Shown: piece after piece, positions 5,170-27,629 of the stretch | How positions within the stretch are numbered: position 1 is the stretch's first letter | Layout: each line of letters opens with the position of its first letter | Assembly: GCA_965372795.1 (NCBI GenBank) | Contig: CBDVDR010000012.1 | Span: 1 to 64,000, forward strand | DNA from: an uncultured bacterium | Lineage (GTDB): Bacteria; Zixibacteria; MSB-5A5; GN15; FEB-12 | Reading direction: 5' to 3' | DNA length: 64,000 nucleotides | Notes under the pieces: model-generated | Database searches by the model: none | Told to the model about the DNA's origin: nothing | The model's input: the letters and a program-made list of their open reading frames with translations, nothing else | Made by a program: the position numbers and the translations under genes

Positions 5170-6885
5170 TCAAGCCGTAGTAGGCTTTAATGTATGATTC
5201 GGATCCGATTCTTTGGGATTAGTAATTGGGTCAGAAGTATATTCCGGGATTTCTATTAAAAAAGTTGTGCCTTCGCTTAATTGAGAATCTACTGATAGAT
5301 TAAGTCTCAGAGCAGTGCAAATCCGATGCACAATGGACAATCCGAGTCCGGTGCCACCTTTTTTGGTGGAATAAAATGGTTTGTAAATATTCTTTAAATG
5401 GATCGCTTCAATTCCCGGTCCATTGTCCTGAACATATAATTCGATGAAATTGCTATTAAGATTCCTTGCAATTCTGAAAACAAGCTCACCTTCCTTAGTT
5501 TCCATCGCTTCACAAGCGTTCACAGCCAGATTCAAAAGTAGCTGACGGAATAAATCCTCATCTCCAACAACATAAGTTATTGAATGATCGGTCTCAAAAT
5601 TAATGTCTATTTTAGAGTGATATGAATTATGATGATACAGCAATTGGATTACATCTGTAACCACATGACATAGTTCAACTTTATTATAAATTCTCTTGTC
5701 AACTCGTGCGTAACTAAGAAAATCACTCAATATCCTGCTTAGCCGATGGGATTCTTTGACAATTAAATCCATAAGTTTTTTATTATCATCTTCCAGTTCA
5801 AGTTCATTTTTCAAAACTTCTACTGATCCGGATATTGAAGCTAAGGGATTTCTTATCTCATGAGCAATTGATGCTGAGAGTTCACCAACCGCCGCCAGAC
5901 GGTCAGCCGCTCGAACTTTGGCTTCCATATTTTTGGCAGAAGTTAAATTTGAAAATATTGTAATTACACCTCGTAAGGTTCCATTATCTTCGGTCAATAT
6001 TGAGGTTGACAGACCCAGAGGGATTCTAACATTTTCATGATTTATTATCTCTGTTTCTTTTCTGGGATATTGAACTAATTGCGTTGTCCCTTGAATTAAA
6101 AAATCAGCTAACTCAGGCATTCTCTCTGAAAAAACATCACTGCAATGCAGCCCTCGAACATCTTCACTTCTAAAACCAAGTATTTTTTCAGCCGCCCGGT
6201 TAAAATATATGATAAATCCTTTGGCATCAATCGTGAGCAAGCCGGAATTAAGATGATGCAGGATTTCATCAGTTTCAAGACGTGCTTTTCTAAGGGCTAT
6301 TGAAGAATCTTTGAGCTGCTTATCCTGCGTTTTAAGTTTCTCGGCCAGAAACCCCGAAATAAATGCAACCAGGTAAAAAATCAAAATATGAAGTAATATC
6401 GAATAAAACGCATTCTCTTTACCAACAAATACAGTTTGCAGCATATGAAGCGAAATAGCCGTATCGGCACTTCCCACCAACCCGAACCAAATTATAAAGG
6501 CATAAGCAATAGAGACAACTGAGGCTATTAAAAGCGTACCTACCATGCCATAAATTAAAGCCGCCGAAACAATAGCCAGAATAAACAAACCTGAAAATGG
6601 CGAGTTTATATTTCCGGTGGCATATATTATTCCCGATTCTATCAGGATTTCAAATACAAATTGTAAAGCAATTAAAGATGACGTGACATTTATAAGTTTT
6701 AGTTTTTTATCGAAGGTTATAAAGAGAGCAAACGCAAGGGTTAAAACAGAATAGATTACAAATTGAAGCCTGAGAAATAAAGGATACCCCATCCAGAAGA
6801 CTACGACCGAAAATAATATTATAAACGATGCGAATCTTAAAGGTATAAACCAACTGAATTGTTTTGATTTTTCAACTTGTTCCAT
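5170..6885 (-). CDS. pilS: Membrane PAS sensor histidine kinase, PilS-like
   Basis: N-terminal TM helices, PAS domain, AHEIRNPL H-box, N-box LNLAVNA, DNGPG, GTGLGL; lies directly after pilC. Confidence 0.8.
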   Translation of the reverse strand: MEQVEKSKQFSWFIPLRFASFIILFSVVVFWMGYPLFLRLQFVIYSVLTLAFALFITFDKKLKLINVTSSLIALQFVFEILIESGIIYATGNINSPFSGLFILAIVSAALIYGMVGTLLIASVVSIAYAFIIWFGLVGSADTAISLHMLQTVFVGKENAFYSILLHILIFYLVAFISGFLAEKLKTQDKQLKDSSIALRKARLETDEILHHLNSGLLTIDAKGFIIYFNRAAEKILGFRSEDVRGLHCSDVFSERMPELADFLIQGTTQLVQYPRKETEIINHENVRIPLGLSTSILTEDNGTLRGVITIFSNLTSAKNMEAKVRAADRLAAVGELSASIAHEIRNPLASISGSVEVLKNELELEDDNKKLMDLIVKESHRLSRILSDFLSYARVDKRIYNKVELCHVVTDVIQLLYHHNSYHSKIDINFETDHSITYVVGDEDLFRQLLLNLAVNACEAMETKEGELVFRIARNLNSNFIELYVQDNGPGIEAIHLKNIYKPFYSTKKGGTGLGLSIVHRICTALRLNLSVDSQLSEGTTFLIEIPEYTSDPITNPKESDPNHTLKPTTA

Positions 6886-6944: not shown

Positions 6945-8141
6945 CTATATTTTGCCAATGATATCAAACATAGGTAAATACATCGCAACCAGAATACCAC
7001 CGATCACAATACCCATAAGTACAATAATTATCGGTTCGATAACCGACGTCAACGCAGTGACAGCCTCATCAACTTCTTCATCGTAGAAATCAGAAATTTT
7101 GTTAAGCATATCATCAAGACCACCGGTTTTTTCACCAACAGAAATCATCTGGGTCACCATCGGAGGAAATACTCCTGATTCCTTTAGAGGAGCAGTAATT
7201 GTATCACCCTCAGCAATTGACACCACTGATTTATTAATGGCATTGGCAATCACCAAATTTCCGGATGTTTTTGCAGTTATTTCCAAAGCTTCCAAAATTG
7301 AAACACCCGAGGAAAGCAAAGTACCCAGGGTACGGGTGAATCTTGCTACCGATGATTTTCTAACTAAATTTCCAAGAACCGGCAGTCTCAAAAGAATCTT
7401 ATCAAACATCAGCGCACCGGCATCTGTTTTCTTCCACCAAAAGAATAAAATCGACGAACCGATAGTTCCTCCAATTAAATAAAGAAAATTTGCCTGAAGG
7501 AAATTTGATATCTGTAAAACAACCTGAGTCGGTGCCGGCAAATCAGCATTCAATCCGCCAAACATCTTCGCAAAAACAGGAACGATAAAAGTCAACATAC
7601 TGATGGTTACCCCTGCTGCTACAATCATAATAACAACCGGATATATCATCGCACCTTTTACTTTTCTAACCAACTGGTCAGCCTTTTCACGATAGATCGC
7701 AAGACGGACTAATATACCATCAAGAGCTCCACCAACTTCACCGGCTTCCACCATGTTAGTATAAAGAGGATCAAATATTTTTGGATGGCGTGCCATGGCA
7801 TCAGAAAGAGTAGCACCACCCTGAACACCGTCCTGAACCTGTTTAATAATTTTAGCTAATTCTTTATTTTCAGTCTGCTGGGCAAGAATTTCAAGACACT
7901 GCACCATTGGTAATCCGGCGCCAATCATCGTTGCAAATTGGCGGGTAAATCGAGAGATTTCAACCTTTTTGATTCCGGTTCCAAATCTGATATCAAGTTC
8001 CGGTGCTTTCTTAGTAATCGAATTTACCATAATTCGATTTTGTCTAAGTACCCGTTCAATATCACTCTTTGTTTTTGCCTTCATCTGCCCTTGAACAGCA
8101 GCACCGGCAAGAGTCTTTCCTTTATATTCAAAAACTGGCAT
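6945..8141 (-). CDS. pilC: Type IV pilus platform protein PilC
   Basis: Two T2SSF domains: FTRQFATMIGAG, GEVGG.LD..L.RLA, GEKTG.LD.ML, AMYLPMF. Confidence 0.95.
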   Translation of the reverse strand: MPVFEYKGKTLAGAAVQGQMKAKTKSDIERVLRQNRIMVNSITKKAPELDIRFGTGIKKVEISRFTRQFATMIGAGLPMVQCLEILAQQTENKELAKIIKQVQDGVQGGATLSDAMARHPKIFDPLYTNMVEAGEVGGALDGILVRLAIYREKADQLVRKVKGAMIYPVVIMIVAAGVTISMLTFIVPVFAKMFGGLNADLPAPTQVVLQISNFLQANFLYLIGGTIGSSILFFWWKKTDAGALMFDKILLRLPVLGNLVRKSSVARFTRTLGTLLSSGVSILEALEITAKTSGNLVIANAINKSVVSIAEGDTITAPLKESGVFPPMVTQMISVGEKTGGLDDMLNKISDFYDEEVDEAVTALTSVIEPIIIVLMGIVIGGILVAMYLPMFDIIGKI

Positions 8142-8164
8142 TCAAATATCCTTTCATCCTTCTA

Positions 8165-9241
8165 TTAAGTAAATGCTGGAGATTTTTGCCGTGACATCAT
8201 CTCAGATAGTTCTTGGGTATTGTGACTGAAGTTCATAGCATCATTTATTGTTATTTTTCCAGCTATATATAGTTCTGATAATGATTGATTCATTGTTTTC
8301 ATACCAAATTTCTGTCCTGATTGAATCATTGAATACATCTGGTGAATCTTGTCATCACGAATCAGGGCTCTGATTGCCGGAGTAGCAATCATTATTTCCA
8401 GCGCAATTGTTCGACCGCCGCCAATTTTAGGTATCAGAGTCTGGGAAACGATTGCCTGTAAAGTAAATGATAATGAAACTCTGATCTGTTCCTGCTGATT
8501 TGTCGGAAACGAATCAACTATCCGGTTAATAGATTCTGCCGCTGAGTTAGTATGTAAAGTTGCGAAGGCAAGGTGACCGGTTTCAGAGATTGATAAAGCC
8601 GCTTCGATTGTTTCCAAATCACGCATCTCACCAACCAGTACCACATCAGGATCTTCACGTAAGGCATATTTCAAAGCGGTTGCAAAGGAGGTCGTGTCTG
8701 AATAAACTTCCCGTTGATTGATCAAAGCTTTCTGATGGCGATGAAGATACTCAATCGGATCTTCTACAGTGATAATATGAACCGGGCGTTCTTTATTTAT
8801 TTTATCAATGATCGCTGCCAGAGTCGTTGATTTACCCGAACCGGTTGGACCGGTAACCAATATTAAACCACGTGGTAAATTTGAAAAATCGGCACAAACC
8901 TTAGGCAGAGCCAATTGCTCAAAAGTCATAATTTCATAGGGAATTTGACGAAGCACGACCGCTACATTACCTCTCTGCATAAACAGATTGCACCGAAACC
9001 GACTCATCCGCTCAATACCAAAAGAGAGATCAAGTTCTGAGTTTTGCTCAAATTTCATTTTCTGTTTTTCATTTAACATTGAATAGGCGAGTTTTTTTAT
9101 CTGCTCACTGGTCAACATATCATGACTTGTTCGTTGGAGTTTTCCATCAACTCTTATCACAGGTGGGGCTCCAACAGTTAAATGAAGATCAGAAGCCCCT
9201 GCTTTCACCATCTCTTCTAATAATTCACGCAAACTTGCCAT
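8165..9241 (-). CDS. pilT: Type IV pilus retraction ATPase PilT
   Basis: ASDLHL, GPTGSGKST, TVEDPIE, LREDPD, ETGHL...TLHT and AIRALIR motifs. Confidence 0.95.
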   Translation of the reverse strand: MASLRELLEEMVKAGASDLHLTVGAPPVIRVDGKLQRTSHDMLTSEQIKKLAYSMLNEKQKMKFEQNSELDLSFGIERMSRFRCNLFMQRGNVAVVLRQIPYEIMTFEQLALPKVCADFSNLPRGLILVTGPTGSGKSTTLAAIIDKINKERPVHIITVEDPIEYLHRHQKALINQREVYSDTTSFATALKYALREDPDVVLVGEMRDLETIEAALSISETGHLAFATLHTNSAAESINRIVDSFPTNQQEQIRVSLSFTLQAIVSQTLIPKIGGGRTIALEIMIATPAIRALIRDDKIHQMYSMIQSGQKFGMKTMNQSLSELYIAGKITINDAMNFSHNTQELSEMMSRQKSPAFT

Positions 9242-9297
9242 TAATTACTCCATAACTCAAAATTACAGAAATTTAGATATAATAATTCTTTTTAATG

Positions 9298-9324
9298 TTA
9301 TCGGAATAAAACGACTATTCTTGA
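9298..9324 (-). promoter_or_regulatory. Sigma28-like promoter upstream of pilT
   Basis: Minus strand TCAAGAATAGTCGTTTTATTCCGATAA (TCAAG-15-CCGATAA). Confidence 0.55.
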
Positions 9325-9387
9325 CTCTGAAGGGCTTTTATTTCACCTCTCAAGGCTTTGAGAGACAAGGGTTTTACAACTGAAGGC

Positions 9388-11088
9388 TTAAGAACTTGTA
9401 GTGGTGGAAAAAACTTCATCAATACTTACAATACCATTTTTCATCTTCTCAACAGCACTCATCCGAAGACTGAACATACCTTCCTCGATTGCTTTTGCCA
9501 TAATTTCAAGATCAGAAGCTTTTCTTAAAATTAAAGACTCAATGGCAACGGTTATCGGCATGACTTCAAAAATACCGATACGCCCGGATTTTCCGGTATT
9601 ATTACATTGTGAGCAACCTTTACCCTGGAAAGCTCGTAAATTTTTCAATAATTCATCAGGGACATCCAAACCTTCAACTTGCTCTTTTGTCAAATTGATT
9701 TCCTCTTTACAGTGTTGACAAATTTTCTTCATCATACGCTGGGCAAGGATTAGTTTGGTTGATGAGGCAACCAGGTAATTTGGTATATTCATATCAATTA
9801 AACGGTTGATTGATGACGGAGCATCGTTGGTATGCAGCGTAGAAAAAACAAGGTGACCGGTTAAAGCTGCTCGAATCGCAATTTCGGCGGTTTCACCATC
9901 ACGAATTTCTCCAACCATGATAATATCAGGATCCTGACGTAAGAAGGATCTTAATGCCGATGCAAATGTTAATCCAATATCAGATTTAACCGCTACCTGA
10001 TTGATCCCCTCGAAGTTAAACTCGACCGGATCCTCAGCAGTCATAATATTCACATCGACCTGGTTTAAAGTTTTAAGACCTGAATACAATGTGGTAGTCT
10101 TACCTGATCCCGTAGGACCAGTTACCAGAATAATACCGTAAGGCAATTTAATTTTTTCTTCGAATTTCTCCAAATCCTGTTCACGGAATCCTAAAAGCTT
10201 TAGATCAACCTGCAAAGCTAATGGATCCAAAATACGCATAACGACTTTTTCACCAAAAATGGTAGGCAAAACCGACACACGAAGATCAACTGTTCTACCG
10301 GAAATTTTAATTTTAATACGTCCATCCTGAGGAAGCCGTCGTTCAGAAATATCCAGCTCAGCCATAATCTTTATTCGGGAAACGATTGCAGAGCGATACT
10401 TAAATGGCAGCGGAGCCATCTCCTCCAATTCACCATCAACACGATAACGAACTCTGATTTTCTTTTCATAAGTCTCAATATGAATATCAGAAGCGCCCCC
10501 GCGGATCGCATCTCCGATAATTGAATCAACAAGTTTAACCAGCGGCTTATCCTGAATTGCAGAGAGTAAATCCGATTCGCTCGGACCTTCATCTTCTTGT
10601 GAGACAACCTCTAAATCTGGATCATCTTCAAGACCTCTGACAATTTCAGACAAACCGGAGCTGTCCCTATAATACGTTTCAATTGCTTTATCAATAGAAG
10701 CTTCGGGAGAAATTACCGGTTGTATGGTTAAACCGGTAATAAATTTCAAGGCGTCGAGAACATAAATATTATTAGGATCACTTAAGGCAACCAACAATGT
10801 TTTATTTAATTTGGAGACTGCAATAACTTTGAATTTGCGGGCAATATCTAAAGGAATTAATTTGATAACTTCAGGATTAAGTTCAACATCGCCTAATCTT
10901 AAGGCTCCGATTTTCAAATGTTGACCGATAAATTTGGCAATGTCATCCTCGGACTCGATGGCACCTATCTGCACAAGTACCGTTTCGAGTTTTTCATTTT
11001 TATCTTTGGTAACTGCGAGAGCTTTCTCAAGCTGTTCTTGAGTAATTTTTCCCGCTTTTACCAGTACACTTCCGAGTTCGGCTGACAT
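9388..11088 (-). CDS. pilB: Type IV pilus extension ATPase PilB
   Basis: GSPII_N region, ASDIHIE, RLPQDGR, GPTGSGKTT, LRQDPD and zinc motif CQHC...CSQC. Confidence 0.95.
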   Translation of the reverse strand: MSAELGSVLVKAGKITQEQLEKALAVTKDKNEKLETVLVQIGAIESEDDIAKFIGQHLKIGALRLGDVELNPEVIKLIPLDIARKFKVIAVSKLNKTLLVALSDPNNIYVLDALKFITGLTIQPVISPEASIDKAIETYYRDSSGLSEIVRGLEDDPDLEVVSQEDEGPSESDLLSAIQDKPLVKLVDSIIGDAIRGGASDIHIETYEKKIRVRYRVDGELEEMAPLPFKYRSAIVSRIKIMAELDISERRLPQDGRIKIKISGRTVDLRVSVLPTIFGEKVVMRILDPLALQVDLKLLGFREQDLEKFEEKIKLPYGIILVTGPTGSGKTTTLYSGLKTLNQVDVNIMTAEDPVEFNFEGINQVAVKSDIGLTFASALRSFLRQDPDIIMVGEIRDGETAEIAIRAALTGHLVFSTLHTNDAPSSINRLIDMNIPNYLVASSTKLILAQRMMKKICQHCKEEINLTKEQVEGLDVPDELLKNLRAFQGKGCSQCNNTGKSGRIGIFEVMPITVAIESLILRKASDLEIMAKAIEEGMFSLRMSAVEKMKNGIVSIDEVFSTTTSS

Positions 11089-11140: not shown

Positions 11141-11632
11141 TTAATCCTGAAATATATCATCCATTTTGTCTGATGCCATATCAGCAAATTCATTGCTAAT
11201 AGCCGGCTTATCATTTGACATCGCCTTCTTCTCTACCTGTTGAAAAACCTTGTTCAACTCCTGAGATGTTTCCTTGGCATAAAGACGAACCATCCCGATT
11301 GTAGTTCTGTCATCAAAAATTACAACTAAGATTGACCTGCCACCAACAATTGACATGTGGATATGGTCTTTCTTACCCTGATGAAACAGAACTGAAAACT
11401 CTTCCTCACCTACCAAACGTGCTATCTCATGAGTCGATGCAAATGAGCCGGCAAGTAAAGCTGCTAAAGCAGTGGTATCAAGTGAATGTGTAAATCCCTG
11501 GCGGGTTATTAAATGACCATCCTTATCAACCAGCAAAGCACACTTAGCCTCACACCCCTTGATCATCTTAGAGATGAATGCTTCAATTTGAGCAATCTCT
11601 TCTTCGTATATAATCAAACTATCGTTTGACAT
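11141..11632 (-). CDS. mglB: MglB roadblock/LC7 GTPase-activating protein
   Basis: LVDKDG.LI...ALAALLAGSFAS...FSVLFHQG..DHIH...VIFD.RTTIGMVRL, as in Myxococcus MglB; acidic C-terminal helix; GAGGAGG RBS. Confidence 0.9.
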   Translation of the reverse strand: MSNDSLIIYEEEIAQIEAFISKMIKGCEAKCALLVDKDGHLITRQGFTHSLDTTALAALLAGSFASTHEIARLVGEEEFSVLFHQGKKDHIHMSIVGGRSILVVIFDDRTTIGMVRLYAKETSQELNKVFQQVEKKAMSNDKPAISNEFADMASDKMDDIFQD

Positions 11633-11651: not shown

Positions 11652-12659
11652 TTATTTTATTCCAAATAATCGTTTAAAAAATCCACGTTTCTTGGTCTCA
11701 CGCTTTCGTTTCAATGAAGGCGCCATGATAGGACGGTTTAATCCCCCACTATCATCTCCGGAAACTATATTATTATTAGTTACTGTTTTTTCTAAAGTTG
11801 CATCAGCAACCCCTTCTGTTTGTTGGGGTGCATAATTTGATGGAGAAATTTTCTTCTCCTGTGTCTCAGCTGCCGCACTTCCGGGATAAGGACGATACGT
11901 GACATCCGAAACCGGGGCGGGTCGAGGTGCTTCCGTCTGAGAAGCAACAACGGTATTAGATTGTGAAGCTGATGGCGATGTGGAATAATCGGTTTGAGCA
12001 GCCGGCTGATTTTCCGGTTGAGATTGGGTAGTGGGGATTTGAGCTGATGCTTCCAGAACCCGTGTTTGTTTTACATTTGTACTTTTAGCTTTATCCAAAA
12101 CAAGCTTGATAATCAATTTTAGAGTATCAAAAACTCCGTTGCCAATTGAAGCCGAAGCTTCAAAAATAGGCAGCCCTCTTGGATTAAGCCTGCGATTCAT
12201 TTCTTCAACTGACAAAATGCCCGGTAAATCGCGTTTATTATACTGAAGAACAATTGGCATATCGTTTATATCGTAGCCATATTCTTTCAGATTTTCTTCA
12301 AGATTCGATAGCGATTCAATATTTTCATCCATCTTGTCAGGCTGACTATCAGCTACAAAACAGACACCGTCAACACCTCGCAATACAAGCTTCCTGGTAG
12401 CGTTATAATATACCTGTCCGGGAACAGTATAAAGCTGAAATTTGGCCGCCAATCCATTGATATTGCCAATATTTATTGGCAGAAAATCAAAAAACAGAGT
12501 TCGATCTGCTTCGGTTGCCAAAGAGATAAGCTTCCCGCGAGTAGTCTGAGGAACTTTTGAATGGATATACTGAAGATTGGTGGTCTTCCCCGACAGACCA
12601 GGACCATAATAAACAATCTTACAGCAAACTTCTCTCGATGAATAATTTATTGATACCAT
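11652..12659 (-). CDS. mglA: MglA small Ras-like GTPase with a ~140-aa C-terminal extension
   Basis: INYSSRE..CKIVYYGPGLSGKTTN, DRTLFFDF, TVPGQ, NKRD and EASA motifs, followed by a Q/S/T/P/A-rich tail. Confidence 0.93.
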   Translation of the reverse strand: MVSINYSSREVCCKIVYYGPGLSGKTTNLQYIHSKVPQTTRGKLISLATEADRTLFFDFLPINIGNINGLAAKFQLYTVPGQVYYNATRKLVLRGVDGVCFVADSQPDKMDENIESLSNLEENLKEYGYDINDMPIVLQYNKRDLPGILSVEEMNRRLNPRGLPIFEASASIGNGVFDTLKLIIKLVLDKAKSTNVKQTRVLEASAQIPTTQSQPENQPAAQTDYSTSPSASQSNTVVASQTEAPRPAPVSDVTYRPYPGSAAAETQEKKISPSNYAPQQTEGVADATLEKTVTNNNIVSGDDSGGLNRPIMAPSLKRKRETKKRGFFKRLFGIK

Positions 12660-12682: not shown

Positions 12683-13024
12683 TTAACTGGATAATTTAAG
12701 ATTGTTTAATGCATTTTTAATTTCTAAACGAATCAATCCAACGTTTACATTCTGTTCCGTTGTCACAACCAAAATGCCGACTCCGGCATCTGAGAAAAAT
12801 AGTTTTGCATTCTCAGCTTCAATTGTAACCTGTTTCAACGGTGTTGCATCAAGCCTATCCAATGATTTCCGGATATTTGATGTGATGGACGCTGCTAAGG
12901 CGCCAACGGTTTCATCCTCAAATGATTCCTGAAGATCTGCGGCGATAACAATACCGTCTTTTCCTACAACCATCGAACCGGTAATCCCGGTTGTTTTGTT
13001 CAACTCATTTAATACATTATACAT
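12683..13024 (-). CDS. Standalone roadblock/LC7 protein
   Basis: GITGSMVVGKDGIVIA...VGALAA...NVGLIRLE. Probable start is ATG 13024 (RBS GGAG), overlapping the upstream stop. Confidence 0.88.
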   Translation of the reverse strand: MYNVLNELNKTTGITGSMVVGKDGIVIAADLQESFEDETVGALAASITSNIRKSLDRLDATPLKQVTIEAENAKLFFSDAGVGILVVTTEQNVNVGLIRLEIKNALNNLKLSS

Positions 13025-13991
13025 ATGACTTCTCCGATTGTATGACCAGATCATGATCATAGCGTTCGTTAATATACTTTTTAATTATTTCGACACCCTG
13101 TTTAACTCTAATATTTATGAGATCATCTGTCTTTTGCTCTGCAACAACCATCAAATAGAACGAATCTTCACGAACCAGAATAATTCTTTTTTGACCGCTG
13201 TAAAAATCAATATGTTTCGGGGTTGGAAGACCTGCTTTTTGCATTACCGATCCGTTAGACTCGAATAATACCAATGCCAGAGGAGCCCAATCTTCCGCTT
13301 CATAATCTTGAGTAACATAGTTTGAAAGAAGCAACCCTTCATTATCGACAACAGCTACTAATTCAACCGTGGCACTTTCACCAATATATTTCGTTGCTTT
13401 ATCAAATCCGTTTAATTCACCTGTAACTGTTTCTTTATTATCATATTTTTTAGCCGAAACAGAAGAAGATGCAGGAGCTTGTGTTACTATATTAATGGGC
13501 TGAGTCTGTTTCTTTTCTTTGGATAAAGCTATATTAGTCATCCCGGAATTTACATTTGAAGCATCTTGTTCAGCAGGAGGTGTTAATTTTCTTTTTTGTT
13601 CTGGAATGATTTCCATAATTAACGGTTTCAAAACAAATGGTGCTGATAAAATGTGCAGGAAAATCCCGGGGATATAACTTGTTATTCCCATGGTAAGTGA
13701 TATTCCGAAATTCATTTTATACATTAATGTAATCAAGGCACCAAAGAAAACTCCAAGACTTATCCTGTATATAAAGCATAGTCCGACAACTTGAAAGAGT
13801 TTCACCAATGTAGCTTTTCGATTAAAGAAAAATACTACAAGACCATAAAAGACCAGCTCTATTAAAGCATTCGCCAGAGATGCTGTTCCCAGCGAGGTTC
13901 CAAATCGTTCTGGAAAAGCAACCATTGGGACAATCATCAACAATAATGATAAAAGCAATATCTGACGGCCATTTCGACCTGATAATTTCAT
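13017..13991 (-). CDS. Membrane-anchored roadblock/LC7 protein
   Basis: About 4 hydrophobic N-terminal segments, a low-complexity linker, then a C-terminal roadblock (VAVVDNEGLLLS...AEDWAPLA). Confidence 0.75.
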   Translation of the reverse strand: MKLSGRNGRQILLLSLLLMIVPMVAFPERFGTSLGTASLANALIELVFYGLVVFFFNRKATLVKLFQVVGLCFIYRISLGVFFGALITLMYKMNFGISLTMGITSYIPGIFLHILSAPFVLKPLIMEIIPEQKRKLTPPAEQDASNVNSGMTNIALSKEKKQTQPINIVTQAPASSSVSAKKYDNKETVTGELNGFDKATKYIGESATVELVAVVDNEGLLLSNYVTQDYEAEDWAPLALVLFESNGSVMQKAGLPTPKHIDFYSGQKRIILVREDSFYLMVVAEQKTDDLINIRVKQGVEIIKKYINERYDHDLVIQSEKSYV

Positions 13992-14002
13992 TTTTGTACC
14001 CT

Positions 14003-14860
14003 CTATTTATTTCCAAATAGGTTTTCAATTTTCATTCTAAGCGATCCAAGATTAGTCCCTGATTGAGCGATAAACAAATAAATCCCGGGATCAGTTACAA
14101 CCTGATAAAAATTCAAGTTCTCAGTTTCAATCAGGATAGTTGAAATATTTCCAAAAGAGTTCTGAATCATTTCAGCATTAAGATTTTTGGAAATCTCAAC
14201 CATATTTGCTCCGCATACTTCTGAATCCATCTGGAGGACCCATTCCTTTTCTACAATCAGACCTTCATTATTTAAAAACAAAGCTCCATCGATACCTTTA
14301 AAAGTTATAGCATCTTTTAAAATATCCAACGGTTCCTTAATTACTGGCTCTGATTTTCTCTTTTCTACTTGTAAAACAGCAGGCTCTTTAACAACTGGTT
14401 TCATTTTTTCTTGCGAAGCCGCATGAATAAGGGTCTGCTCTATCGGTATTTTCTCGGCTATATCCAATAATTTTTTAACCTGATCATTAGTCGGATCACT
14501 CTGGTGAAGCTTCCTTAAAAGCCTGATCGCCTTGGAGAATTCCCCTTTATATATATGAATTTCAGCCATCAATAATTCTACGGCTCTGGTCTTACCGTCA
14601 ATTTCAGCCGATTTCTGAACCTCTATCTCTGCCCAGTCATAAAGTCCCCGATCAAGATTTATTTTCGCCATGACTAAATGAGCAGAACCGTATTTTAGAT
14701 GAACTTTCAATCCATTACGGCATACTTTAAACGCTCTATCCAATTCCCCTTTTTTTCTGTATGCTTCTGCTAAAGCTGCAAAAATCTGAGAATTCGGATC
14801 AGCGTCTAATATTTTCTGACACTTATTGATTCTGTCGTCTATTTCCAAAGTACTAATCAT
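14003..14860 (-). CDS. TPR-roadblock fusion protein
   Basis: DPNSQIFAALAEAYRKKG plus further TPR-like repeats; C-terminal GIDGALFLNNEGLIV...NLGSLRM roadblock. Confidence 0.8.
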   Translation of the reverse strand: MISTLEIDDRINKCQKILDADPNSQIFAALAEAYRKKGELDRAFKVCRNGLKVHLKYGSAHLVMAKINLDRGLYDWAEIEVQKSAEIDGKTRAVELLMAEIHIYKGEFSKAIRLLRKLHQSDPTNDQVKKLLDIAEKIPIEQTLIHAASQEKMKPVVKEPAVLQVEKRKSEPVIKEPLDILKDAITFKGIDGALFLNNEGLIVEKEWVLQMDSEVCGANMVEISKNLNAEMIQNSFGNISTILIETENLNFYQVVTDPGIYLFIAQSGTNLGSLRMKIENLFGNK

Positions 14861-15332: not shown

Positions 15333-16535
15333 TTAACCTCTAATCATTTTCACGACTTTATCAGCCTTTTTAACGGTTCGATAGAAACTATCTTCAATAT
15401 TATATCGTTTAACAATTTCTCTGCGTATAGCCAATGGTTGAGCAATCTCTTTTTTTACACTAATGGCAACCTCTTTGAAGGTGCCTACCCCGGCAAGCTG
15501 AAAAATAAACTCAAGCTGTTCAGAGAGCATAATATCAAGATCAGCCATCAATTTACAGAATCTGATATTGGCGGGGATATTTTTTATCACCGGTAGAAAT
15601 TTTTCGAATTGCGGAGCCAGTTCTGATGATGGATCGACTCCGGAAAAGAAAACCATTATACCGTTTCGATACTGAGATGCAAACGAAGCAAATCGGCTGT
15701 TTTCTTCACCAAGCAGTTCATCGACAATAGATCTAATTCGGAAAAAACATCCGTTGTATAGATCAAAAATGATTCTTAATACAACTTCTTCTTCATCTTC
15801 CTGATCAGCCGATTGTTTTTCTTTTTTCCCGACTACTTCAATTAGCTTATTTAAAATTAAGCGATAAATACACCGATAAGTTACAAATTCACCCATAGGC
15901 GATTTTGAAATTAATTCCGGCATCGTATGCTCACCGTCAATTAAGGCTAAAATTTTAAACTCATCTAAAGTAAGTACTATTTCATCAGATTTTCGTTTAG
16001 GATTTTTGTTAACTGCAAACAAAACATTATCAGGAGGGAGGACCTTTTGAATTTCAATCCATTCATCTATACGGCGAGTTCCTTCCATGATAACACTCAT
16101 GGTATTAAGTTCAATCAGGAATGGTGCATTTTTTGGTTTTTCATTTTCATAAAATACAAAATCCCCTTGAGGCCATGAAAAAAGATTATAAACCGTCTCT
16201 TCAATCTGAAGCTTCAGACATTCGGCTATCTCAGACTTCTCGAAGATATTCATATCAACCAAGGTCGTACCAAGTTGTCGTCCGGTTTGTTTATGGAGAG
16301 TAATAGCCCGATCAAGATCAGTTTTAGAAATTTTCCCTCGCTTTAATAGCATATTCCCAAGCAAGTCTTCATTTGAGTTAACTGATGATGCATAAATAAT
16401 ATTTCCGTCTTTAAAAAAGACTTCTTTCTGTCTGCTGGATGTTTTCACTTCCAACAGTCCAATTTTCTTTCCTGTTGCTAACAACTGCAATATATCAGAG
16501 AAAGAAACTGTTTTAAGATTTCCTGAAAGACCCAT
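15333..16535 (-). CDS. DUF4388 (PATAN-like) domain protein
   Basis: LSGNL...SFSDILQLL...KK.G.L...F.DG.I.YA, LFSW..G.F.F and MEG.RR.DEW; internal MshEN-like helical repeat. Confidence 0.85.
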   Translation of the reverse strand: MGLSGNLKTVSFSDILQLLATGKKIGLLEVKTSSRQKEVFFKDGNIIYASSVNSNEDLLGNMLLKRGKISKTDLDRAITLHKQTGRQLGTTLVDMNIFEKSEIAECLKLQIEETVYNLFSWPQGDFVFYENEKPKNAPFLIELNTMSVIMEGTRRIDEWIEIQKVLPPDNVLFAVNKNPKRKSDEIVLTLDEFKILALIDGEHTMPELISKSPMGEFVTYRCIYRLILNKLIEVVGKKEKQSADQEDEEEVVLRIIFDLYNGCFFRIRSIVDELLGEENSRFASFASQYRNGIMVFFSGVDPSSELAPQFEKFLPVIKNIPANIRFCKLMADLDIMLSEQLEFIFQLAGVGTFKEVAISVKKEIAQPLAIRREIVKRYNIEDSFYRTVKKADKVVKMIRG

Positions 16536-16674: not shown

Positions 16675-18936
16675 CTAAGGCTTTAGGTCAATCTGATAGA
16701 AACCTCTGGCTTTAAGATTATTTAGTTTCAATATCTGCTGTTTATTAATTACAGAACTGTTTTTTTCAATTTTATGCATAATCTGCTGTTCAATATTTGA
16801 ACAGATAACCATATCAAAATAACCGAGAACTGACATTAGGTTGTCATAGTGTGACATCTTAACTTTGGAGCTGATACACAAAATACCCCTCTCAAAATCC
16901 CGAAGATCTTTGCACTCACTAATATTCTCAACAAACGAAAGATTAATTGAATCTGTCTTAAAATTATAAATTCTATCAGCTTGCAGATTAGCTGAGCCAG
17001 TTAATTTTATTATTGGCTCCACCGTAATTTCATTAATTAAGTCATTGCCGGAAAGCTGCTTAATGTCATAGAACATATTTAATAGAGGTTCATTTACAAA
17101 CATTGTATCACCCTGATGAGTCGCCATGAGATTCATTAAATCTTCAGCCGCTTTATATTGTGATGATAATACATAGACATTATTGATCTTTTCAATACTA
17201 TAATGAATAAGCATTGGGCGTATAATTACTTCATCAATTGGATAATCTTTTTTATACAACCCGTTTACAATCATTGTAGAACTTCTGGAAACCGGATCAA
17301 TATGAAGCAAACCCATCCCGCCCGGTAGATTAAATGCAATCAGGCGATTAGATTCTGATTCGAAATATGGCGAAATTATTTTATAGCCAAAACCAATATT
17401 TAGGATCACTAAAAGACTTATAACGGTAAGTCGTCTAATTTTTGTCTTATATAATGACATAACAATTAAAACCGTAATAATAAAATATAAGATGACATAA
17501 CTAACCGAAAACTCCCCTGTCTCCCATATCATTCGTTCATCACCATTAAAGAATATCAATAATTTTATGATAAAACTCATGAGAACATCAAGGAGGCTCC
17601 CGACAAATTGTCCTAACAAGGGATGAATCAAAGCCGCCACAAGTAAAACCAGCACGCCTACTAAGGCTATAGAAACCAACGGAACAATAATAAGGTTGGC
17701 AATAACTGAGACCAGCGGAATTTTTTGGAAATAAAACGCAATAACAGGCGCTGAACAAACCTGGGCAACCAGTGAAATAATCAGGGGCAGAAATAAATAC
17801 TTGTAGATTTTATAATTATAATATTTTTCAAATTTACGATGAATTATAGGAACAAGAAAAATCAACCCCCAGGCTGTTATAAATGAAAGCTGGAACCCAA
17901 TATGATAAAACTGTCCCGGATCAAACAGTAAAATAATTGAAGCCGTCAGAGCTATTATATTATTCAAATTATATCGACGTCCGACCAATCCGGCAATAAT
18001 CACTAAAGTTGCCATAACCGATGCGCGAACAACCGAGGGCTCACCATATGAAAGAAAAGTGAATATAAAAACTATAGCCATTAAGATTAAACTGCGGATA
18101 TTTCTTTTTAAAGAAAAAGGGCGCATCACAAATATAAAAAACAAAATAACCAAAGCAACATTAGAACCGGATACGGCCAAGAGATGCAATGTCCCCGTAT
18201 TGCGAAAATATCGATAAATATCAACAGGAATATTTCTTGTCTCACCGATTAAAAAACCAGAGGCTAATGAGGCTGACATCGGTGAAAGATTATCTTCAAA
18301 AACATTTGTAATCTCTGCTCTCAACTTATCAATTAATGACAACAATTTAATTGATGAAGACCGACCGATACGAACATCAATCAAAGTTGGCAGATAGACA
18401 ACTCCGAATATTCCTTTAAGATTTAAAAATCGCTGGTAATTAAATCCGATATTTTTTTCTATCTCACGAACAGGATAAATCACGCCAAAAAATTCGACCT
18501 TATCCCCTCTTTGAAGGGTGGTTGTGGTATCATATACTTTTAATAATATATCACCCTTGACTGAAACTGAAGTTTCTCCCACAAGTGAATCAACTCGAAT
18601 AGGAATTTCCGTTCGGTTGGCTTTTAATAAGGGCCAGTTAGAAACTTCTCCAAAAATATGATAGCGCTGATTTTCTTCAACAATTTGCTTCAAACTGTTA
18701 GGACCGGTATCATAAAATTGAACGGCAAAATTCAAAGCGTTGAAAAATAAAATAGCCAGTGAAAAACCGATCAGACCTAATTGTATTCTGTTTTTTTTGA
18801 ATAATACATAACCGCCGATCATGCTTATCAATGCAAACAAAAACAATAACAGCGATGATATCCGTGTAAGATCGGCTAATAGAATCCCTGCGATAATCAC
18901 CAGCAGCAGGAAGATGCCGGGATATTTGCGAAACAT
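16675..18936 (-). CDS. comEC: DNA uptake channel ComEC/Rec2
   Basis: DUF4131/OB region, HLLAVSG.N, PSVVRA..M and GFQLSF; degenerate C-terminal MBL-like region. Confidence 0.9.
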   Translation of the reverse strand: MFRKYPGIFLLLVIIAGILLADLTRISSLLLFLFALISMIGGYVLFKKNRIQLGLIGFSLAILFFNALNFAVQFYDTGPNSLKQIVEENQRYHIFGEVSNWPLLKANRTEIPIRVDSLVGETSVSVKGDILLKVYDTTTTLQRGDKVEFFGVIYPVREIEKNIGFNYQRFLNLKGIFGVVYLPTLIDVRIGRSSSIKLLSLIDKLRAEITNVFEDNLSPMSASLASGFLIGETRNIPVDIYRYFRNTGTLHLLAVSGSNVALVILFFIFVMRPFSLKRNIRSLILMAIVFIFTFLSYGEPSVVRASVMATLVIIAGLVGRRYNLNNIIALTASIILLFDPGQFYHIGFQLSFITAWGLIFLVPIIHRKFEKYYNYKIYKYLFLPLIISLVAQVCSAPVIAFYFQKIPLVSVIANLIIVPLVSIALVGVLVLLVAALIHPLLGQFVGSLLDVLMSFIIKLLIFFNGDERMIWETGEFSVSYVILYFIITVLIVMSLYKTKIRRLTVISLLVILNIGFGYKIISPYFESESNRLIAFNLPGGMGLLHIDPVSRSSTMIVNGLYKKDYPIDEVIIRPMLIHYSIEKINNVYVLSSQYKAAEDLMNLMATHQGDTMFVNEPLLNMFYDIKQLSGNDLINEITVEPIIKLTGSANLQADRIYNFKTDSINLSFVENISECKDLRDFERGILCISSKVKMSHYDNLMSVLGYFDMVICSNIEQQIMHKIEKNSSVINKQQILKLNNLKARGFYQIDLKP

Positions 18937-21000: not shown

Positions 21001-23742
21001 TTATTCAATACATCCCACGACAGGCATTGGACCTGACAGGAAAATATAATTGACAAGGTATGTCAAATCTGAAATATCAAGCACACATGATCCGTTCACA
21101 TCGGCAGTGTTCATGATAATCGGCGGCGGTCCGCCTCCAAAAAAATAATCCACGATATAAACAACATCTCCGATATCAACCGTTCCCGACCCGTTCACAT
21201 CACCCGCAGTTTCAATTACTGCGGTTTCGCCAAAGGTTTGTTTGACAAATGAAATCAGAGCTGTTGCTGATTCGGTCGTTAAGAAATAGACCGGGAAAGT
21301 CAGAAATATTCTCAAACCTTCAGGGGTAGCATACAAAACTCCACAGGGTTGGTTTTCAAATAACGGACTATTTGTAAATGAATCAAAACGATAGATTATT
21401 GTTGCTCCGGATCTGGTTGTGATAACCGGAATATTAGGCATATTTGTAAACATAATTCCGGGGTCCATTTGTAAATCAGGCCAGCTGCCTTCTCCTTTTG
21501 CCCCGGCAAAATCCATTCCGGTATTTACGTTATAAGAAGTTACCCCAAACTCTCGATATAATAAATGACTGCTATAAAGAGGTGATTGAGTCCAATCTGA
21601 AAGTACGGCATAGCCGGAAACAAAAACATTAGTCTCAAAATTGAGATACCAATCAAGAGTGTCTTCACTAAGAGGAATCATATTCGGAGACAAATCATCA
21701 TCAAACCAAAAGATTGAAGAATATTGTCCGGCAATATTTCGGGAAAGCTTTTCTCCAAGAATATAAGATTCAACCTGAACAACTCCGTGAGGAGTGCCAT
21801 CGAACAGCGAATCAAAGTATGCTAACTGTTCTGTTTGATCAGGCAATGGATTTGTTTGGGTCATATCATCAACGACTAAAATACCGCCATCAAAGGTTGC
21901 GGCAAAGGCTTCAACTTCTTCTGAATAATCGGACTCATAGCCATCGAAATCCACAGCTGTTAATTTATAAGTATATTGAATCTGTCCAAGAGTGTTAACA
22001 TCTTCGTAATATGAAGGAACATAGTTGTCTTCATAAAGTGAATAACTAAGATCATTCATTTTCCTATAGATACGATAATAACTAAAATCGGCTTCTATAT
22101 TATCATTCCAATCGAGGAGAATTTTATGATCGGCTGGATCAGCCTGAATATTTGCCGGGGCTCTCGGAATCAACAATGGCATCTCACTGCTTTCAACTGT
22201 ATAAATCGCCGGATAACCATCATCTATATCACCAAATACACCAAAATAATATATTTGACCATCGGTCAATCCATTGATTGTGTAAGAACAAATTCCATCC
22301 GGGACAATTATAGAATTGGTGTAGACTTCTGAAGAGGTGCCATATCTAATTGTGTAATGATAACTCGGGTCACAATCAGACCAGAAAAGTTCCAATGCCT
22401 GACCATCACCAATATCTACTATTTGTTCAATTTCGGTCGGATGAGCAGCATTGGCAACATGAGCCAGGGCACTGGTTGCCATCTTTACAACTTCTGTAAA
22501 GAAAGGAAAATTCAATGCGGTTGTAAGATCAAGATTTGTATGCCAGCCCTGATAGTTAAAATTGGCTTCAATATTATTACAAATATTAAATCCAGCCTGA
22601 TCAAATGAAGCATGATCGGAACCGCCGGGAGATGAGTTGCCTTTTATCGGATTCACACCCGAAACTCTTAAAGCGGCATCGTAAGTCAGATCGCGGTAAC
22701 TTCGGTTGGCTCCACCGGAAATTTCAAGCTGATAATAGTTGTTTGGATCATAAGCAACCATATCATAGTTAAACATTACTTCAACATCCGTTCCCGTATA
22801 AGCAAATTCATCGGCAGCATAATATGATCCGACCAGACCAACTTCTTCAGCAGTAAAAGTCATAAAAACAATTGTTTTTCTAAAAGGAACATCTACCAGG
22901 ATTCGGGCAATTTCCAAAACAAGTGCTGACCCCGAACCGTTATCATCAGCTCCCGGAGCATAATCCATTGGGTCGGTTGGCTGATTATATGTTATTGAAT
23001 CATAATGACCGCCAATTACAATAACTTTGTCAGGCTCAGTTGTCCCCGGTTTGACACATTTCACATTGTATTGATTTCCGTTAAAATAAAATGACGGCGT
23101 TGTAACATCGGTATAGCCCCAGGCTAAAAACTTCGAGACAATCCAGTCACGAGCCTGATCAATTCCAGCGGTGTAAATATAACGGGTTTGGAAATTTTCA
23201 AGATGATAATCAAAGGCATAAATTGAATCCTGATTTACTCTCAAAGCAAGAGTATCGGTGGGGAAATCATCAATTTCACTAAATAGATTAGCGACCGATT
23301 TGGGTAAATATATTATTCTTATTTCAAGGTCTGTTAATGAAGTCACAAAGAAATCAGGATTTTCTTCATAACTTGCCGCCTCTGATCTTGCCAGAGGCAT
23401 GATTGACATACTATTGCCAATATCAATCTGTTCTCCAAAAACATCAAATTGTTTATTTGTTACAAATCTCGTTCGCGGACGAATTAAATATATCGAACTT
23501 ACATCAGCATCTTTCACGAGAACATCAAAACTGATTCCGGCTCGGGAAAGAACCCCTGTTTGTACTTTATTAAGGCTAACAGTAAAATCGTTACCGGAGC
23601 GAACATGGGCGGATTCGATAGCTTGGTTAACTACCTTTTCCTGAAATTTATTCTTCACTTTGACAATAGCAATATCTTCTGCGAAAATTGCCGGGGATGA
23701 CAACAAAACAACAAGAAGCAATGAACTAATTAGTTTACGCAT
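21001..23742 (-). CDS. Secreted M28 metallopeptidase with two Fn3 domains and a C-terminal dockerin-like domain
   Basis: Signal peptide; GGHYDS, PGADDNGSG, AEEVGL.GS, NYDM, SDH..F and WHT motifs; Fn3 repeats; GDVNGSG.VDIGD and ADVNGS..LDISD duplicated Ca-binding loops. Start ATG 23742 with GGAGG. Confidence 0.88.
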   Translation of the reverse strand: MRKLISSLLLVVLLSSPAIFAEDIAIVKVKNKFQEKVVNQAIESAHVRSGNDFTVSLNKVQTGVLSRAGISFDVLVKDADVSSIYLIRPRTRFVTNKQFDVFGEQIDIGNSMSIMPLARSEAASYEENPDFFVTSLTDLEIRIIYLPKSVANLFSEIDDFPTDTLALRVNQDSIYAFDYHLENFQTRYIYTAGIDQARDWIVSKFLAWGYTDVTTPSFYFNGNQYNVKCVKPGTTEPDKVIVIGGHYDSITYNQPTDPMDYAPGADDNGSGSALVLEIARILVDVPFRKTIVFMTFTAEEVGLVGSYYAADEFAYTGTDVEVMFNYDMVAYDPNNYYQLEISGGANRSYRDLTYDAALRVSGVNPIKGNSSPGGSDHASFDQAGFNICNNIEANFNYQGWHTNLDLTTALNFPFFTEVVKMATSALAHVANAAHPTEIEQIVDIGDGQALELFWSDCDPSYHYTIRYGTSSEVYTNSIIVPDGICSYTINGLTDGQIYYFGVFGDIDDGYPAIYTVESSEMPLLIPRAPANIQADPADHKILLDWNDNIEADFSYYRIYRKMNDLSYSLYEDNYVPSYYEDVNTLGQIQYTYKLTAVDFDGYESDYSEEVEAFAATFDGGILVVDDMTQTNPLPDQTEQLAYFDSLFDGTPHGVVQVESYILGEKLSRNIAGQYSSIFWFDDDLSPNMIPLSEDTLDWYLNFETNVFVSGYAVLSDWTQSPLYSSHLLYREFGVTSYNVNTGMDFAGAKGEGSWPDLQMDPGIMFTNMPNIPVITTRSGATIIYRFDSFTNSPLFENQPCGVLYATPEGLRIFLTFPVYFLTTESATALISFVKQTFGETAVIETAGDVNGSGTVDIGDVVYIVDYFFGGGPPPIIMNTADVNGSCVLDISDLTYLVNYIFLSGPMPVVGCIE

Positions 23743-23869
23743 GTATCCTCCGTTTGATCTAATCAAGACGTGTATAATCGCCGAGTATTTTTTTGATTAA
23801 AAAGCCAGTACAACTACAAGGTAACGATGAGACACAATTTGTCAAGAATTAAACTTATAAACGGATGGA

Positions 23870-26173: not shown

Positions 26174-27445
26174 ATGAGGAATTTAGCTAAGTATGCTTTA
26201 TTTGGTACTTTAATTTTGATGTTCGCGATTCCGATTCAAGCGGAAACCGATCTATCCATCACAGGGCAGGTAAGAGTAAGAGGAGAATTGGAAAGAAAAT
26301 CGTTTGACACAACTCTCTCTCATTTTCAAGATTTTTCAATCATGCGTACCAGAATAAATATAAAAGCTAAAGTGGATAAGAATGCTGTTGCATTTATTCA
26401 GCTTCAGGATAGTCGTACCTTGGGTGGCTATAACCAATTTGGTGATATGCAAGCCGTAGCCCTTAACGACAGTAAAAATGTTGATGTCCATCAAGCTTTT
26501 ATTAAAGCTACTATTTGGGAAAATAGTAATAGAAAAGTAGGCTTCTTAGCCGGTCGGTTCGAATTTAACTGGGGCAACGAACGTCTTCTCGGCGGCGTTG
26601 GCTGGAGCAATGTTGGTCGTTCCTGGGAAGGTGGCTTGATTTGGTATAAAACCAACAAATATGATTTCTCTGCCGGTAAATTAAAAGTTATGGAAATCAA
26701 TGACCCGGGATATAATCGTGACTATGATTTTCACTATGCAACCCTCAAGCTTAAAGAATTCAACCTTGATCTTTTAAGCATCTATGAAGTCAATAGTGAT
26801 ACGACAGGATATGACCCTGATATCAAAGCCTTGGAAAGATTTACGTTTGCAGCCTATTACGAACGTGAACATAATCAATTCGATTTTGAAATGAATACTG
26901 CTTACCAATTTGGTCAAAGACCAAGAACTTTGACAACAGAGTATGACATTTCAGCCTTTTTGTTTACCTTTGAAGCTGGTTACAGCTTTGATAACGATTA
27001 CAACACCCGTTTTGCAGTTGGTATTGACTATATGTCAGGTGACGATGACTTGACTGACGGCGACTGGAAAACATTCGATGATTTATATCCAACCGGACAT
27101 AAATTCTCCGGTTATATGGATTATTTCCTTGGTGGCGGTCCAAACGGTTTGGTGGATATTATGGCTCGCGGTGAATTTGATGTTACCGATGGCTGGACTG
27201 TCAAAGGCGATTTCCATATTTTCAGAGCTGCTGAAGAATATCCAAGTGCGCTTGGTCTTGCTTTTGGTGATGCTAAAAATATTGGTACTGAGATTGATTT
27301 AACAGTAACAACTAATCGCATCAAAGGCTTAAAAATGCAATGGGGCGCTTCAATGTTTATCGCAAAAGACGACTTTGCAGGTCTTGAAGATGATGGTAAA
27401 CAGAGCGGCTTTTGGTTTTACGAACAAGTCATGATCAATTTCTAA
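26174..27445 (+). CDS. Alginate-export family outer-membrane porin
   Basis: Signal peptide; GQVRVRGE, F.QLQDSR, GR......ERL.G..GW.N.GR, SGD.......TF..LYPT.H; terminal F. Confidence 0.8.
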   Translation: MRNLAKYALFGTLILMFAIPIQAETDLSITGQVRVRGELERKSFDTTLSHFQDFSIMRTRINIKAKVDKNAVAFIQLQDSRTLGGYNQFGDMQAVALNDSKNVDVHQAFIKATIWENSNRKVGFLAGRFEFNWGNERLLGGVGWSNVGRSWEGGLIWYKTNKYDFSAGKLKVMEINDPGYNRDYDFHYATLKLKEFNLDLLSIYEVNSDTTGYDPDIKALERFTFAAYYEREHNQFDFEMNTAYQFGQRPRTLTTEYDISAFLFTFEAGYSFDNDYNTRFAVGIDYMSGDDDLTDGDWKTFDDLYPTGHKFSGYMDYFLGGGPNGLVDIMARGEFDVTDGWTVKGDFHIFRAAEEYPSALGLAFGDAKNIGTEIDLTVTTNRIKGLKMQWGASMFIAKDDFAGLEDDGKQSGFWFYEQVMINF

Positions 27446-27456
27446 TTTAGTATTTC

Positions 27457-27489
27457 AAAGGACTTCTATTTTATAGAAGTCCTTTTTTT
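27457..27489 (+). terminator. Porin gene terminator
   Basis: AAAGGACTTCTAT-TTT-ATAGAAGTCCTTT followed by a T-run. Confidence 0.8.
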
Positions 27490-27518
27490 ATTGGAAAAGT
27501 TAAAGAAAAATTTCACAA

Positions 27519-27532
27519 TTGACTTAAATCAA
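27519..27532 (+). promoter_or_regulatory. Crp/Fnr-family (Fnr/Dnr/HcpR-type) box upstream of the octaheme cytochrome
   Basis: TTGAC-TTAA-ATCAA is one mismatch from TTGAT-N4-ATCAA. TATACT at 27554-27559 gives class II (~-41.5) spacing. Confidence 0.6.
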
Positions 27533-27629
27533 ATTAAATAAAACGTTTCCAATTATACTAAAATATAATTTGTACCAAATTATTCAATTTTGACGTACAA
27601 CTTAATATTATCATATAAGAGGAGGATTT

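Follow-up and report, generated by a model that had tools for sequence, protein, structure and literature searches.

The 64,000-nt stretch of DNA analyzed here (referred to as the window; forward-strand positions 1 to 64,000 of contig CBDVDR010000012.1, assembly GCA_965372795.1, from an uncultured bacterium of the phylum Zixibacteria) encodes an MglA-family GTPase of 335 amino acids (aa), MglA-long, in which a canonical MglA switch domain is extended by a tail that ends almost like Escherichia coli MinD. This tailed MglA is real and strongly conserved, and as a form of a well-known switch it is apparently undescribed. In the reading that we favor, and in which we place a fair though far from full measure of confidence, MglA-long is a constitutive, monomeric membrane tether in which GTP and GDP would control the partners rather than the attachment. 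The gene and its parts are located as follows:

11652..12659, minus strand: mglA-long, coding for the 335-aa MglA-family GTPase (open reading frame (ORF) list, sequence, Pfam and PDB match), with the stop codon at 11652-11654.
12084..12659, minus strand: G domain, aa 1-192, of the canonical group-1 MglA type (gapless alignment; mean column identity 0.90 over 120 homologues).
11736..12083, minus strand: predicted disordered spacer, aa 193-308, rich in S, T, A, P and Q (low predicted local distance difference test (pLDDT) scores; column identity about 0.27; length 102-180 aa in homologues).
11877..11897, minus strand: conserved island YRPYPGS, aa 255-261, inside the spacer, a candidate docking motif (conservation in 120 homologues).
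11685..11732, minus strand: PxMAPSL motif and polybasic patch, aa 310-325 (PIMAPSLKRKRETKKR; conservation and charge).
11655..11684, minus strand: terminal MinD-like amphipathic segment GFFKRLFGIK, aa 326-335, a predicted membrane-targeting helix (MinD likeness and conservation).

The tail as a whole (positions 11655-12083) corresponds to residues 193-335, i.e., 143 aa of which 70 are S, T, A, P or Q, and the protein finishes with PIMAPSLKRKRETKKRGFFKRLFGIK directly before the stop codon, the end motif being KKRGFFKRLFGIK. Ten Lys or Arg residues stand among the last 20, where the net charge amounts to +9. The 120 best homologues, drawn from a collection of 5.8 billion proteins, are 320-398 aa long and nearly all span the full query at about 54-65% identity; two of the clusters to which they belong are named, both as Zixibacteria, and the ESM Atlas agrees with this placement. 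The mean column identity over these homologues differs sharply between the parts of the protein:

Residues 1-192, G domain: 0.90.
Residues 193-253, 262-268 and 280-308, bulk of the spacer: 0.26-0.28.
Residues 254-261, YRPYPGS island: 0.82.
Residues 269-279, KKISP..F.P region: 0.48.
Residues 309-319, P.MAPSL[KR]RR: 0.75.
Residues 323-335, terminal segment: 0.94.

The terminal pattern is kept in 120/120 homologues, and in the exact form GFFKRLFG in 99 of them. Within the island of the spacer R256, P257, P259 and G260 are invariant (RP[YFW]PG in 120/120), while P310, M312, A313 and P314 are conserved at 90% or more and a PxM[AST]-type motif is present in 118/120; both stretches, RPYPG and PxMAPS, are candidate docking or modification motifs. 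In the AlphaFold2 model, built with the 120-sequence alignment, pLDDT falls below 50 at residues 212-222, 224-228, 231-244 and 262-312, which is consistent with disorder and a conditionally folded end. A first-pass annotation of the window had pictured a disordered linker in front of a membrane-targeting helix. The terminal motif proved to be conserved and most of the linker divergent (0.94 for residues 323-335 vs. 0.26-0.28), but the tail is more than these two elements, as the linker also contains the conserved islands, which the annotation had missed. A CAAX-type lipidation of the tail was also considered and rejected, as a C-terminal Cys is missing: the window protein ends in GIK, and Cys occurs within the last six residues of 0/120 homologues.

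The likeness to MinD concerns the extreme C-terminus. The translated minD gene of E. coli K-12 MG1655 ends EEEKKGFLKRLFGG, in agreement with the ending KKGFLKRLFGG that the first-pass annotation had given for it, and shares with the MglA tail seven of the eight residues of GF[F/L]KRLFG, preceded in both by KK. The motif G[FLIMW][FLIMW][KRN][KR][LIVFMS][FLIM]G occurred twice when all six frames of the 3.35-Mb genome were scanned, once at the MglA C-terminus and once inside an unrelated frame. The MinD ending has been proven to act as an amphipathic membrane-targeting module that can be transplanted (PMC8155659). "MinD-type" denotes a functional class here and no homologous family. The carrier is a ParA/MinD ATPase in one case and a Ras-like GTPase in the other. 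The two endings differ in their surroundings as well: the last 20 residues of MinD have a net charge of +3 and no long spacer before them, while the peptide of MglA-long follows a long, presumably disordered spacer and a basic patch that brings the charge to +9, and the Wimley-White interfacial free energy of its best 9-mer is -2.44 kcal/mol vs. -1.55 kcal/mol in MinD. MinD itself (NCBIfam TIGR01968) scored above the cut-off in 0/285 genomes of the phylum, 198 of them of high quality, with a control that passed in six well-known genomes, so that the MglA peptide would not be a copy from a resident MinD.

Across the phylum, the gene was found in 271/285 genomes at E ≤ 1e-10 (195/198 of the high-quality ones), mostly in frames of 330-460 aa; the few short frames that were inspected coincide with tail-profile matches on other contigs of fragmented assemblies (e.g., genome G091). 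A profile of the 30-aa tail end matched 160/285 genomes at E ≤ 0.01, with 152/159 in the four nearest families (f1 102/107, f2 14/14, f3 4/5 and f4 32/33) and only 7/125 in the other sixteen. For 15 of these sixteen families the ORF ends were read in one genome each, and every one of them shows a Lys/Arg run followed by a short aromatic/hydrophobic segment of differing sequence (e.g., KKKKRKFFLFRWF, KSIWGKFWWRWIRKIV and RRRQRSLFDRLFGWLFGR). All 15 carry a net charge between +6 and +11 on their last 20 residues, and in 12/15 the interfacial free energy of the best 9-mer is -2.4 kcal/mol or lower. A pattern rule (hydrophobic residues at i, i+1, i+4 and i+5 within the last 18 residues; at least four Lys/Arg and a net charge of at least +2 within the last 28) was passed by 12/15 of these families vs. 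28 of the 1942 ORFs with 200 aa or more in the genome of the window, and the free-energy and charge values combined by only 2/1942. In none of the 15 other families sampled did the RPYPG island appear in this form, a P..M..S pattern is present in 5/15, and their spacers are often acidic rather than S/T/P/Q-rich. Such a turnover of sequence with retained chemistry is what lipid binding would allow, unlike a lock-and-key peptide, and it fits a lipid contact better than one specific protein contact.

Beyond the phylum, a HMMER pass over 1.84 billion cluster representatives retrieved 6808 relatives, of which the best 150 were examined. All of these 150 are 255-800 aa long. Long forms are overstated in this list, since each cluster is probably represented by its longest member; with a score of 271 bits for M. 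xanthus MglA, short proteins would be expected as well, and their absence probably means that longer representatives conceal them. According to rules of our own, 38 of the 150 end in a basic amphipathic segment, 19 in a transmembrane-like one and 93 otherwise, and the first two kinds were counted in favor of a membrane anchor. A FastTree phylogeny of the G domains (176 rows with local SH-like supports only: the window protein, 142/150 representatives, the 15 family samples and 18 short MglAs; eight representatives were left out by the P-loop pattern or the 180-residue minimum) recovered a Zixibacteria-type group of 34 rows, 32 of them amphipathic (support 99), a separate transmembrane-type group of 25 rows, 18 of them transmembrane-like (support 98), and a further group of 38 rows with 20 amphipathic ends of another kind (KKPINPK...GFLxxLF; support 83). 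Another clade of 33 representatives carries a beta-rich-looking C-terminal module that often finishes with ...RRAA. The members of ten representatives' clusters yielded one organism name, Schekmanbacteria, in the cluster of a transmembrane-type representative. A contig scan with the KKPINPK-type query P0158 gave 27 loci. The 18/18 ORFs passing a P-loop/PGQ filter in that scan are ordinary MglAs of 193-203 aa (WOR-3, Atribacteria and other bacteria), which served as the control, and the remaining loci (Lentisphaeria, Verrucomicrobia-type and one Alphaproteobacteria) failed the filter. Long MglA-like clusters of the ESM Atlas from Fibrobacterota, Acidobacteriota, Krumholzibacteriota and Myxococcota are leads only. 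In a search with the tail alone (aa 291-335) 15 candidates were scored and 11 passed, all of the MglA type, a small sample that says little on other protein families.

The part of the protein in front of the tail is, judging from its sequence, a canonical MglA switch domain. Pfam recognized in the 335-aa protein a small-GTPase domain (Arf) only, at 27.4 bits vs. a cut-off of 22.3. Residues 3-192 align without gaps to residues 3-192 of Myxococcus xanthus MglA in the PDB (271 bits, E 1.7e-79) and likewise to Thermus thermophilus MglA (245 bits), the matched chains of the two species being 195-203 aa long. The diagnostic motifs lie at aa 19-27 (GPGLSGKTT), 52-59 (DRTLFFDF, with Arg53), 78-82 (TVPGQ) and 141-144 (NKRD), and the P-loop, the switch-I Arg motif, TVPGQ and NKRD are unchanged across the 120 homologues. 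DRTLFFDF, with the intrinsic arginine finger of switch I, and YTVPGQ, with the Thr-type G3 (TxxGQ), are the same as in the M. xanthus chain. The complete G domain ending near residue 192 that the annotation had described thus stands, with all of its named motifs present. Within its own genome the gene is the sole match at E ≤ 1e-10. AlphaFold2 also gave a pLDDT below 50 in parts of the G domain (residues 19-33, 41-59 and 78-89, i.e., the P-loop and switch regions) despite near-invariant columns, which is probably due to a shallow alignment of closely related sequences and to the lack of a nucleotide in the model.

The gene lies in a co-directional block with the following neighbors:

15333..16535, minus strand: DUF4388 (PATAN-type) protein at the head of the block (Pfam PF14332, E 5.9e-34).
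14003..14860, minus strand: TPR protein with a probable C-terminal Roadblock domain (TPR families; sub-threshold Robl_LC7).
13017..13991, minus strand: integral-membrane protein with about four hydrophobic segments at aa 7-129 and a probable C-terminal Roadblock domain (hydropathy scan; sub-threshold Robl_LC7).
12683..13060, minus strand: second Roadblock/LC7 protein, directly upstream of mglA (Pfam Robl_LC7, E 1.4e-14).
11141..11632, minus strand: mglB (Roadblock/LC7), 19 nt downstream of mglA (Pfam Robl_LC7, E 6e-12).
6945..11088, minus strand: type IV pilus motor genes pilB (9388-11088), pilT (8165-9241) and pilC (6945-8141; Pfam T2SSE/MshEN and T2SSF).

From 15333-16535 down to 5170-6885 every gene is on the minus strand and separated by short gaps, in the order DUF4388/PATAN, small membrane protein, TPR, membrane protein, Roadblock, MglA, MglB, PilB, PilT, PilC and PilS-like kinase. 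The two probable Roadblock domains stay below the Pfam cut-off of 23 bits, with Robl_LC7 scores of 17.8 bits (E 0.0028) on the C-terminal 138 aa of the membrane protein and 16.7 bits (E 0.006) on the C-terminal 126 aa of the TPR protein. When 44 related loci from 16 families were compared (29 of the same family and 15 of other families), mglB and the upstream Roadblock gene flanked mglA in 44/44, the membrane-protein gene was present upstream in 43/44 and pilB followed mglB in 43/44, both misses being loci truncated at contig ends. A membrane-embedded neighbor fits a switch that would work on the membrane. As listed, the ORF of the upstream Roadblock protein (12683-13060) overlaps that of the membrane protein (13017-13991) by 44 nt (13017-13060), most of which would disappear with a start at the Met found 12 codons into the Roadblock ORF (MYNVLNEL...). 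Directly upstream of the PATAN/MglA/pilus block lies a gene for a ComEC-type competence channel (16675-18936, minus strand; Competence and DUF4131).

In the mechanism that we propose, a disordered spacer of ~115 residues would link the canonical switch domain to a predicted membrane anchor made of two parts. The polybasic patch, with which the last 20 residues reach a net +9, would draw the end of the protein to anionic phospholipids. The Phe/Leu/Ile side of GFFKRLFGIK would then insert into the cytoplasmic leaflet, so that MglA would be kept at the inner membrane by a flexible leash of tens of nanometres. There, the tethered G domain could meet MglB (the GTPase-activating protein) and the operon's three additional Roadblock-type proteins, and could reach the type IV pilus machines at their bases, with a possible role in pilus polarity. 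Given the distance between the predicted anchor and the G domain, and a basic charge well above that of MinD, binding would most likely be constitutive and monomeric. The case for an anchor comes from the resemblance to a peptide of proven function, the extra basic charge, the extreme end position and the pattern of conservation, and not from statistics of amphipathicity. The suggestion of the first-pass annotation that the tailed GTPase may bind anionic membranes directly gains support from the conservation and the chemistry of the terminus. That attachment might also depend on the nucleotide or on oligomers, as it had added, is possible but unsupported here, and the long, probably disordered spacer argues against a direct coupling between nucleotide and anchor.

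Several observations weigh against a constitutive tether. The hydrophobic moment of the terminus (0.64 for the 9-mer, 0.49 for the 11-mer) is the highest within the tail, yet only the 20th among 325 windows of the protein, a scan on the Eisenberg scale was likewise not distinctive, and 3419/10000 shuffles of the last 13 residues reached the observed value; the helical-wheel and hydrophobic-moment analysis that the annotation had proposed therefore does not separate the terminus from chance. Being indistinct on either scale and not above the shuffles, the moment was not counted as support. The short terminal helix of the AlphaFold2 model (residues 327-331) has a pLDDT of about 55-62 and is weak evidence. 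The invariant islands of the tail (RPYPG in 120/120) hint at protein contacts, and the terminal peptide of the four nearest families is far more invariant than lipid binding alone needs. In addition, a lone E. coli MinD sequence reportedly binds too weakly to keep a monomer membrane-bound (PMC8155659). The sufficiency of the MglA tail would thus rest on its added basic charge.

This weakness of a lone MinD sequence is also the starting point of the likeliest alternative, a regulated attachment, which we regard as unlikely but worth keeping in view. MglA-long would then cycle between membrane and cytosol in a Min-like manner, controlled by GTP-dependent self-association, by Roadblock clustering, or by modification of the Ser in PxMAPS as an electrostatic switch. 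The solved structures of MglA-MglB complexes contain MglA as a monomer, which argues against self-association, and no dimerization step is known for MglA. By contrast, a single-copy E. coli MinD sequence requires ATP-driven dimerization (PMC8155659), and the archaeal GTPase ArcoA oscillates on the membrane with a partner (bioRxiv 10.64898/2026.07.23.738820), both of which would favor regulation, as would the conservation of the Ser beside the basic patch (motif in 118/120). Against it stand the poorly conserved spacer of 102-180 aa between anchor and G domain, the charge of +9 vs. +3 in MinD, the more hydrophobic 9-mer, and the PxM..S pattern being present in only 5/15 other families.

FtsZ offers the precedent for a second alternative, as its C-terminal peptide docks on FtsA. 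In an analogous way, the terminal peptide and the islands of MglA-long might bind solely to proteins (TPR, Roadblock or the pilus ATPases), with the likeness to MinD being convergent. The near-invariance of the peptide in the four nearest families (99/120 exact), the further invariant islands and the TPR protein encoded in the operon agree with docking, but 15/15 other families change the sequence and keep the charge and aromatic content, and sister clades of MglA bear transmembrane-like ends, so that we consider docking without a lipid contact improbable. Still less probable, to a degree that makes it hardly more than a formal alternative, is binding of the basic tail to another polyanion (DNA, RNA or polyphosphate) instead of the membrane: the net charge of the 20 terminal residues (+9 in the window protein, +6 to +11 in the phylum) would serve this as well, but Phe/Trp/Leu clustered at i, i+1, i+4 and i+5 at the very end together with the MinD match are atypical of nucleic-acid-binding tails, and the membrane-embedded operon partner points to the membrane. 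An artefact (a frameshift, or the lost stop codon or mis-assembly which the first-pass annotation had mentioned) was rejected as having next to no probability, given the mostly long frames in 271/285 genomes and the terminal motif kept in frame in 120/120 homologues and 30/30 loci of the same family.

If MglA-long is a constitutive tether, an anchor of its own would alter the physics of the switch, with diffusion in two dimensions, a high local concentration at the pilus bases and the possibility of membrane-embedded regulators. A wider idea, which we put forward tentatively and hold to be doubtful at present, is that membrane-anchored MglA represents a single branch within a large class of tailed MglAs, as yet undescribed, which together with membrane-embedded Roadblock partners would form a bacterial counterpart of Ragulator/Ras logic on a Roadblock platform. 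In that case separate G-domain clades would carry a basic amphipathic end, a genuine transmembrane helix at the C-terminus or C-terminal modules of other kinds, and in a MinD-less phylum tethered MglA/MglB might make a membrane pattern of its own that chooses the active pilus pole. The class would have been overlooked because the reference survey of small GTPases excluded sequences > 240 aa (PMC4316618); with 335 aa, MglA-long falls outside its single-domain criterion of 150-240 aa, which is a length convention and no property of the fold. A tailed MglA would justify a census of small GTPases free of any length cut-off, and as the organisms are uncultured, function in the host itself is harder to reach.

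Two further regions of the window, on other subjects, were recorded. At 26174-29030 (plus strand) a multi-haem cytochrome (MtrC/MtrF-like, with cytochrome c7 and c554 matches) comes after an alginate-export-type outer-membrane protein, the two possibly forming an extracellular electron-transfer pair, and 21001-23766 (minus strand) encodes an M28 peptidase of 921 aa with a C-terminal dockerin type I domain.

To our knowledge, all mechanistic work on MglA assumes a soluble protein of ~195 aa that is placed at the pole by its partners; in the full-text literature we found no description of an MglA with a membrane-targeting tail and no paper that links Zixibacteria with MglA. With the M. xanthus and T. 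thermophilus proteins (PDB 6h17, 5ymx, 6hjh and 3t12), MglA-long shares the G domain with its P-loop, Arg53, TVPGQ and NKRD, the adjacent Roadblock gene mglB and the link to type IV pilus motor genes. Those proteins stop at the end of the G domain, however, whereas the window protein adds 143 residues with a predicted anchor, and its gene, unlike theirs, sits among three extra Roadblock-type proteins. Another close system is the archaeal ArcoA/DipA, a small GTPase of the Ras superfamily, related to MglA/SR-beta, which binds membrane by an amphipathic helix of its own, has a regulator partner and is contrasted in the preprint with "bacterial MglA (cytosolic)" (bioRxiv 10.64898/2026.07.23.738820). 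The helix of ArcoA is N-terminal (residues 1-20) and set directly on the G domain, its partner is SepF-like, and ArcoA positions FtsZ and not pili, while the anchor predicted for MglA-long is C-terminal and its surroundings are Roadblock partners and pilus genes. The N-terminus of MglA-long matches M. xanthus MglA from residue 3 onwards, and the protein is not of the ArcoA/DipA type.

On lysosomes, the Ragulator-Rag platform assembles several Roadblock-fold proteins, one of them membrane-anchored, around a small GTPase at the membrane. The operon of the window likewise combines several Roadblock-type proteins, one of them membrane-embedded, with a small GTPase, and the C-terminal domain of its TPR protein has a weak match to LAMTOR5 (E 0.044); two of its four Roadblock domains are below the Pfam cut-off, and unlike in Ragulator-Rag the GTPase would bear an anchor of its own. 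In eukaryotic Ras and Rho proteins (e.g., K-Ras4B) the G domain is followed by a hypervariable region, a polybasic patch and a lipid anchor. MglA-long has the same layout of G domain, flexible region, basic cluster and predicted hydrophobic C-terminal anchor, with a peptide helix in place of the prenyl group and no CAAX box, and with a spacer roughly five to ten times longer than the corresponding region of Ras/Rho. This eukaryotic arrangement would thus have arisen independently in bacteria.

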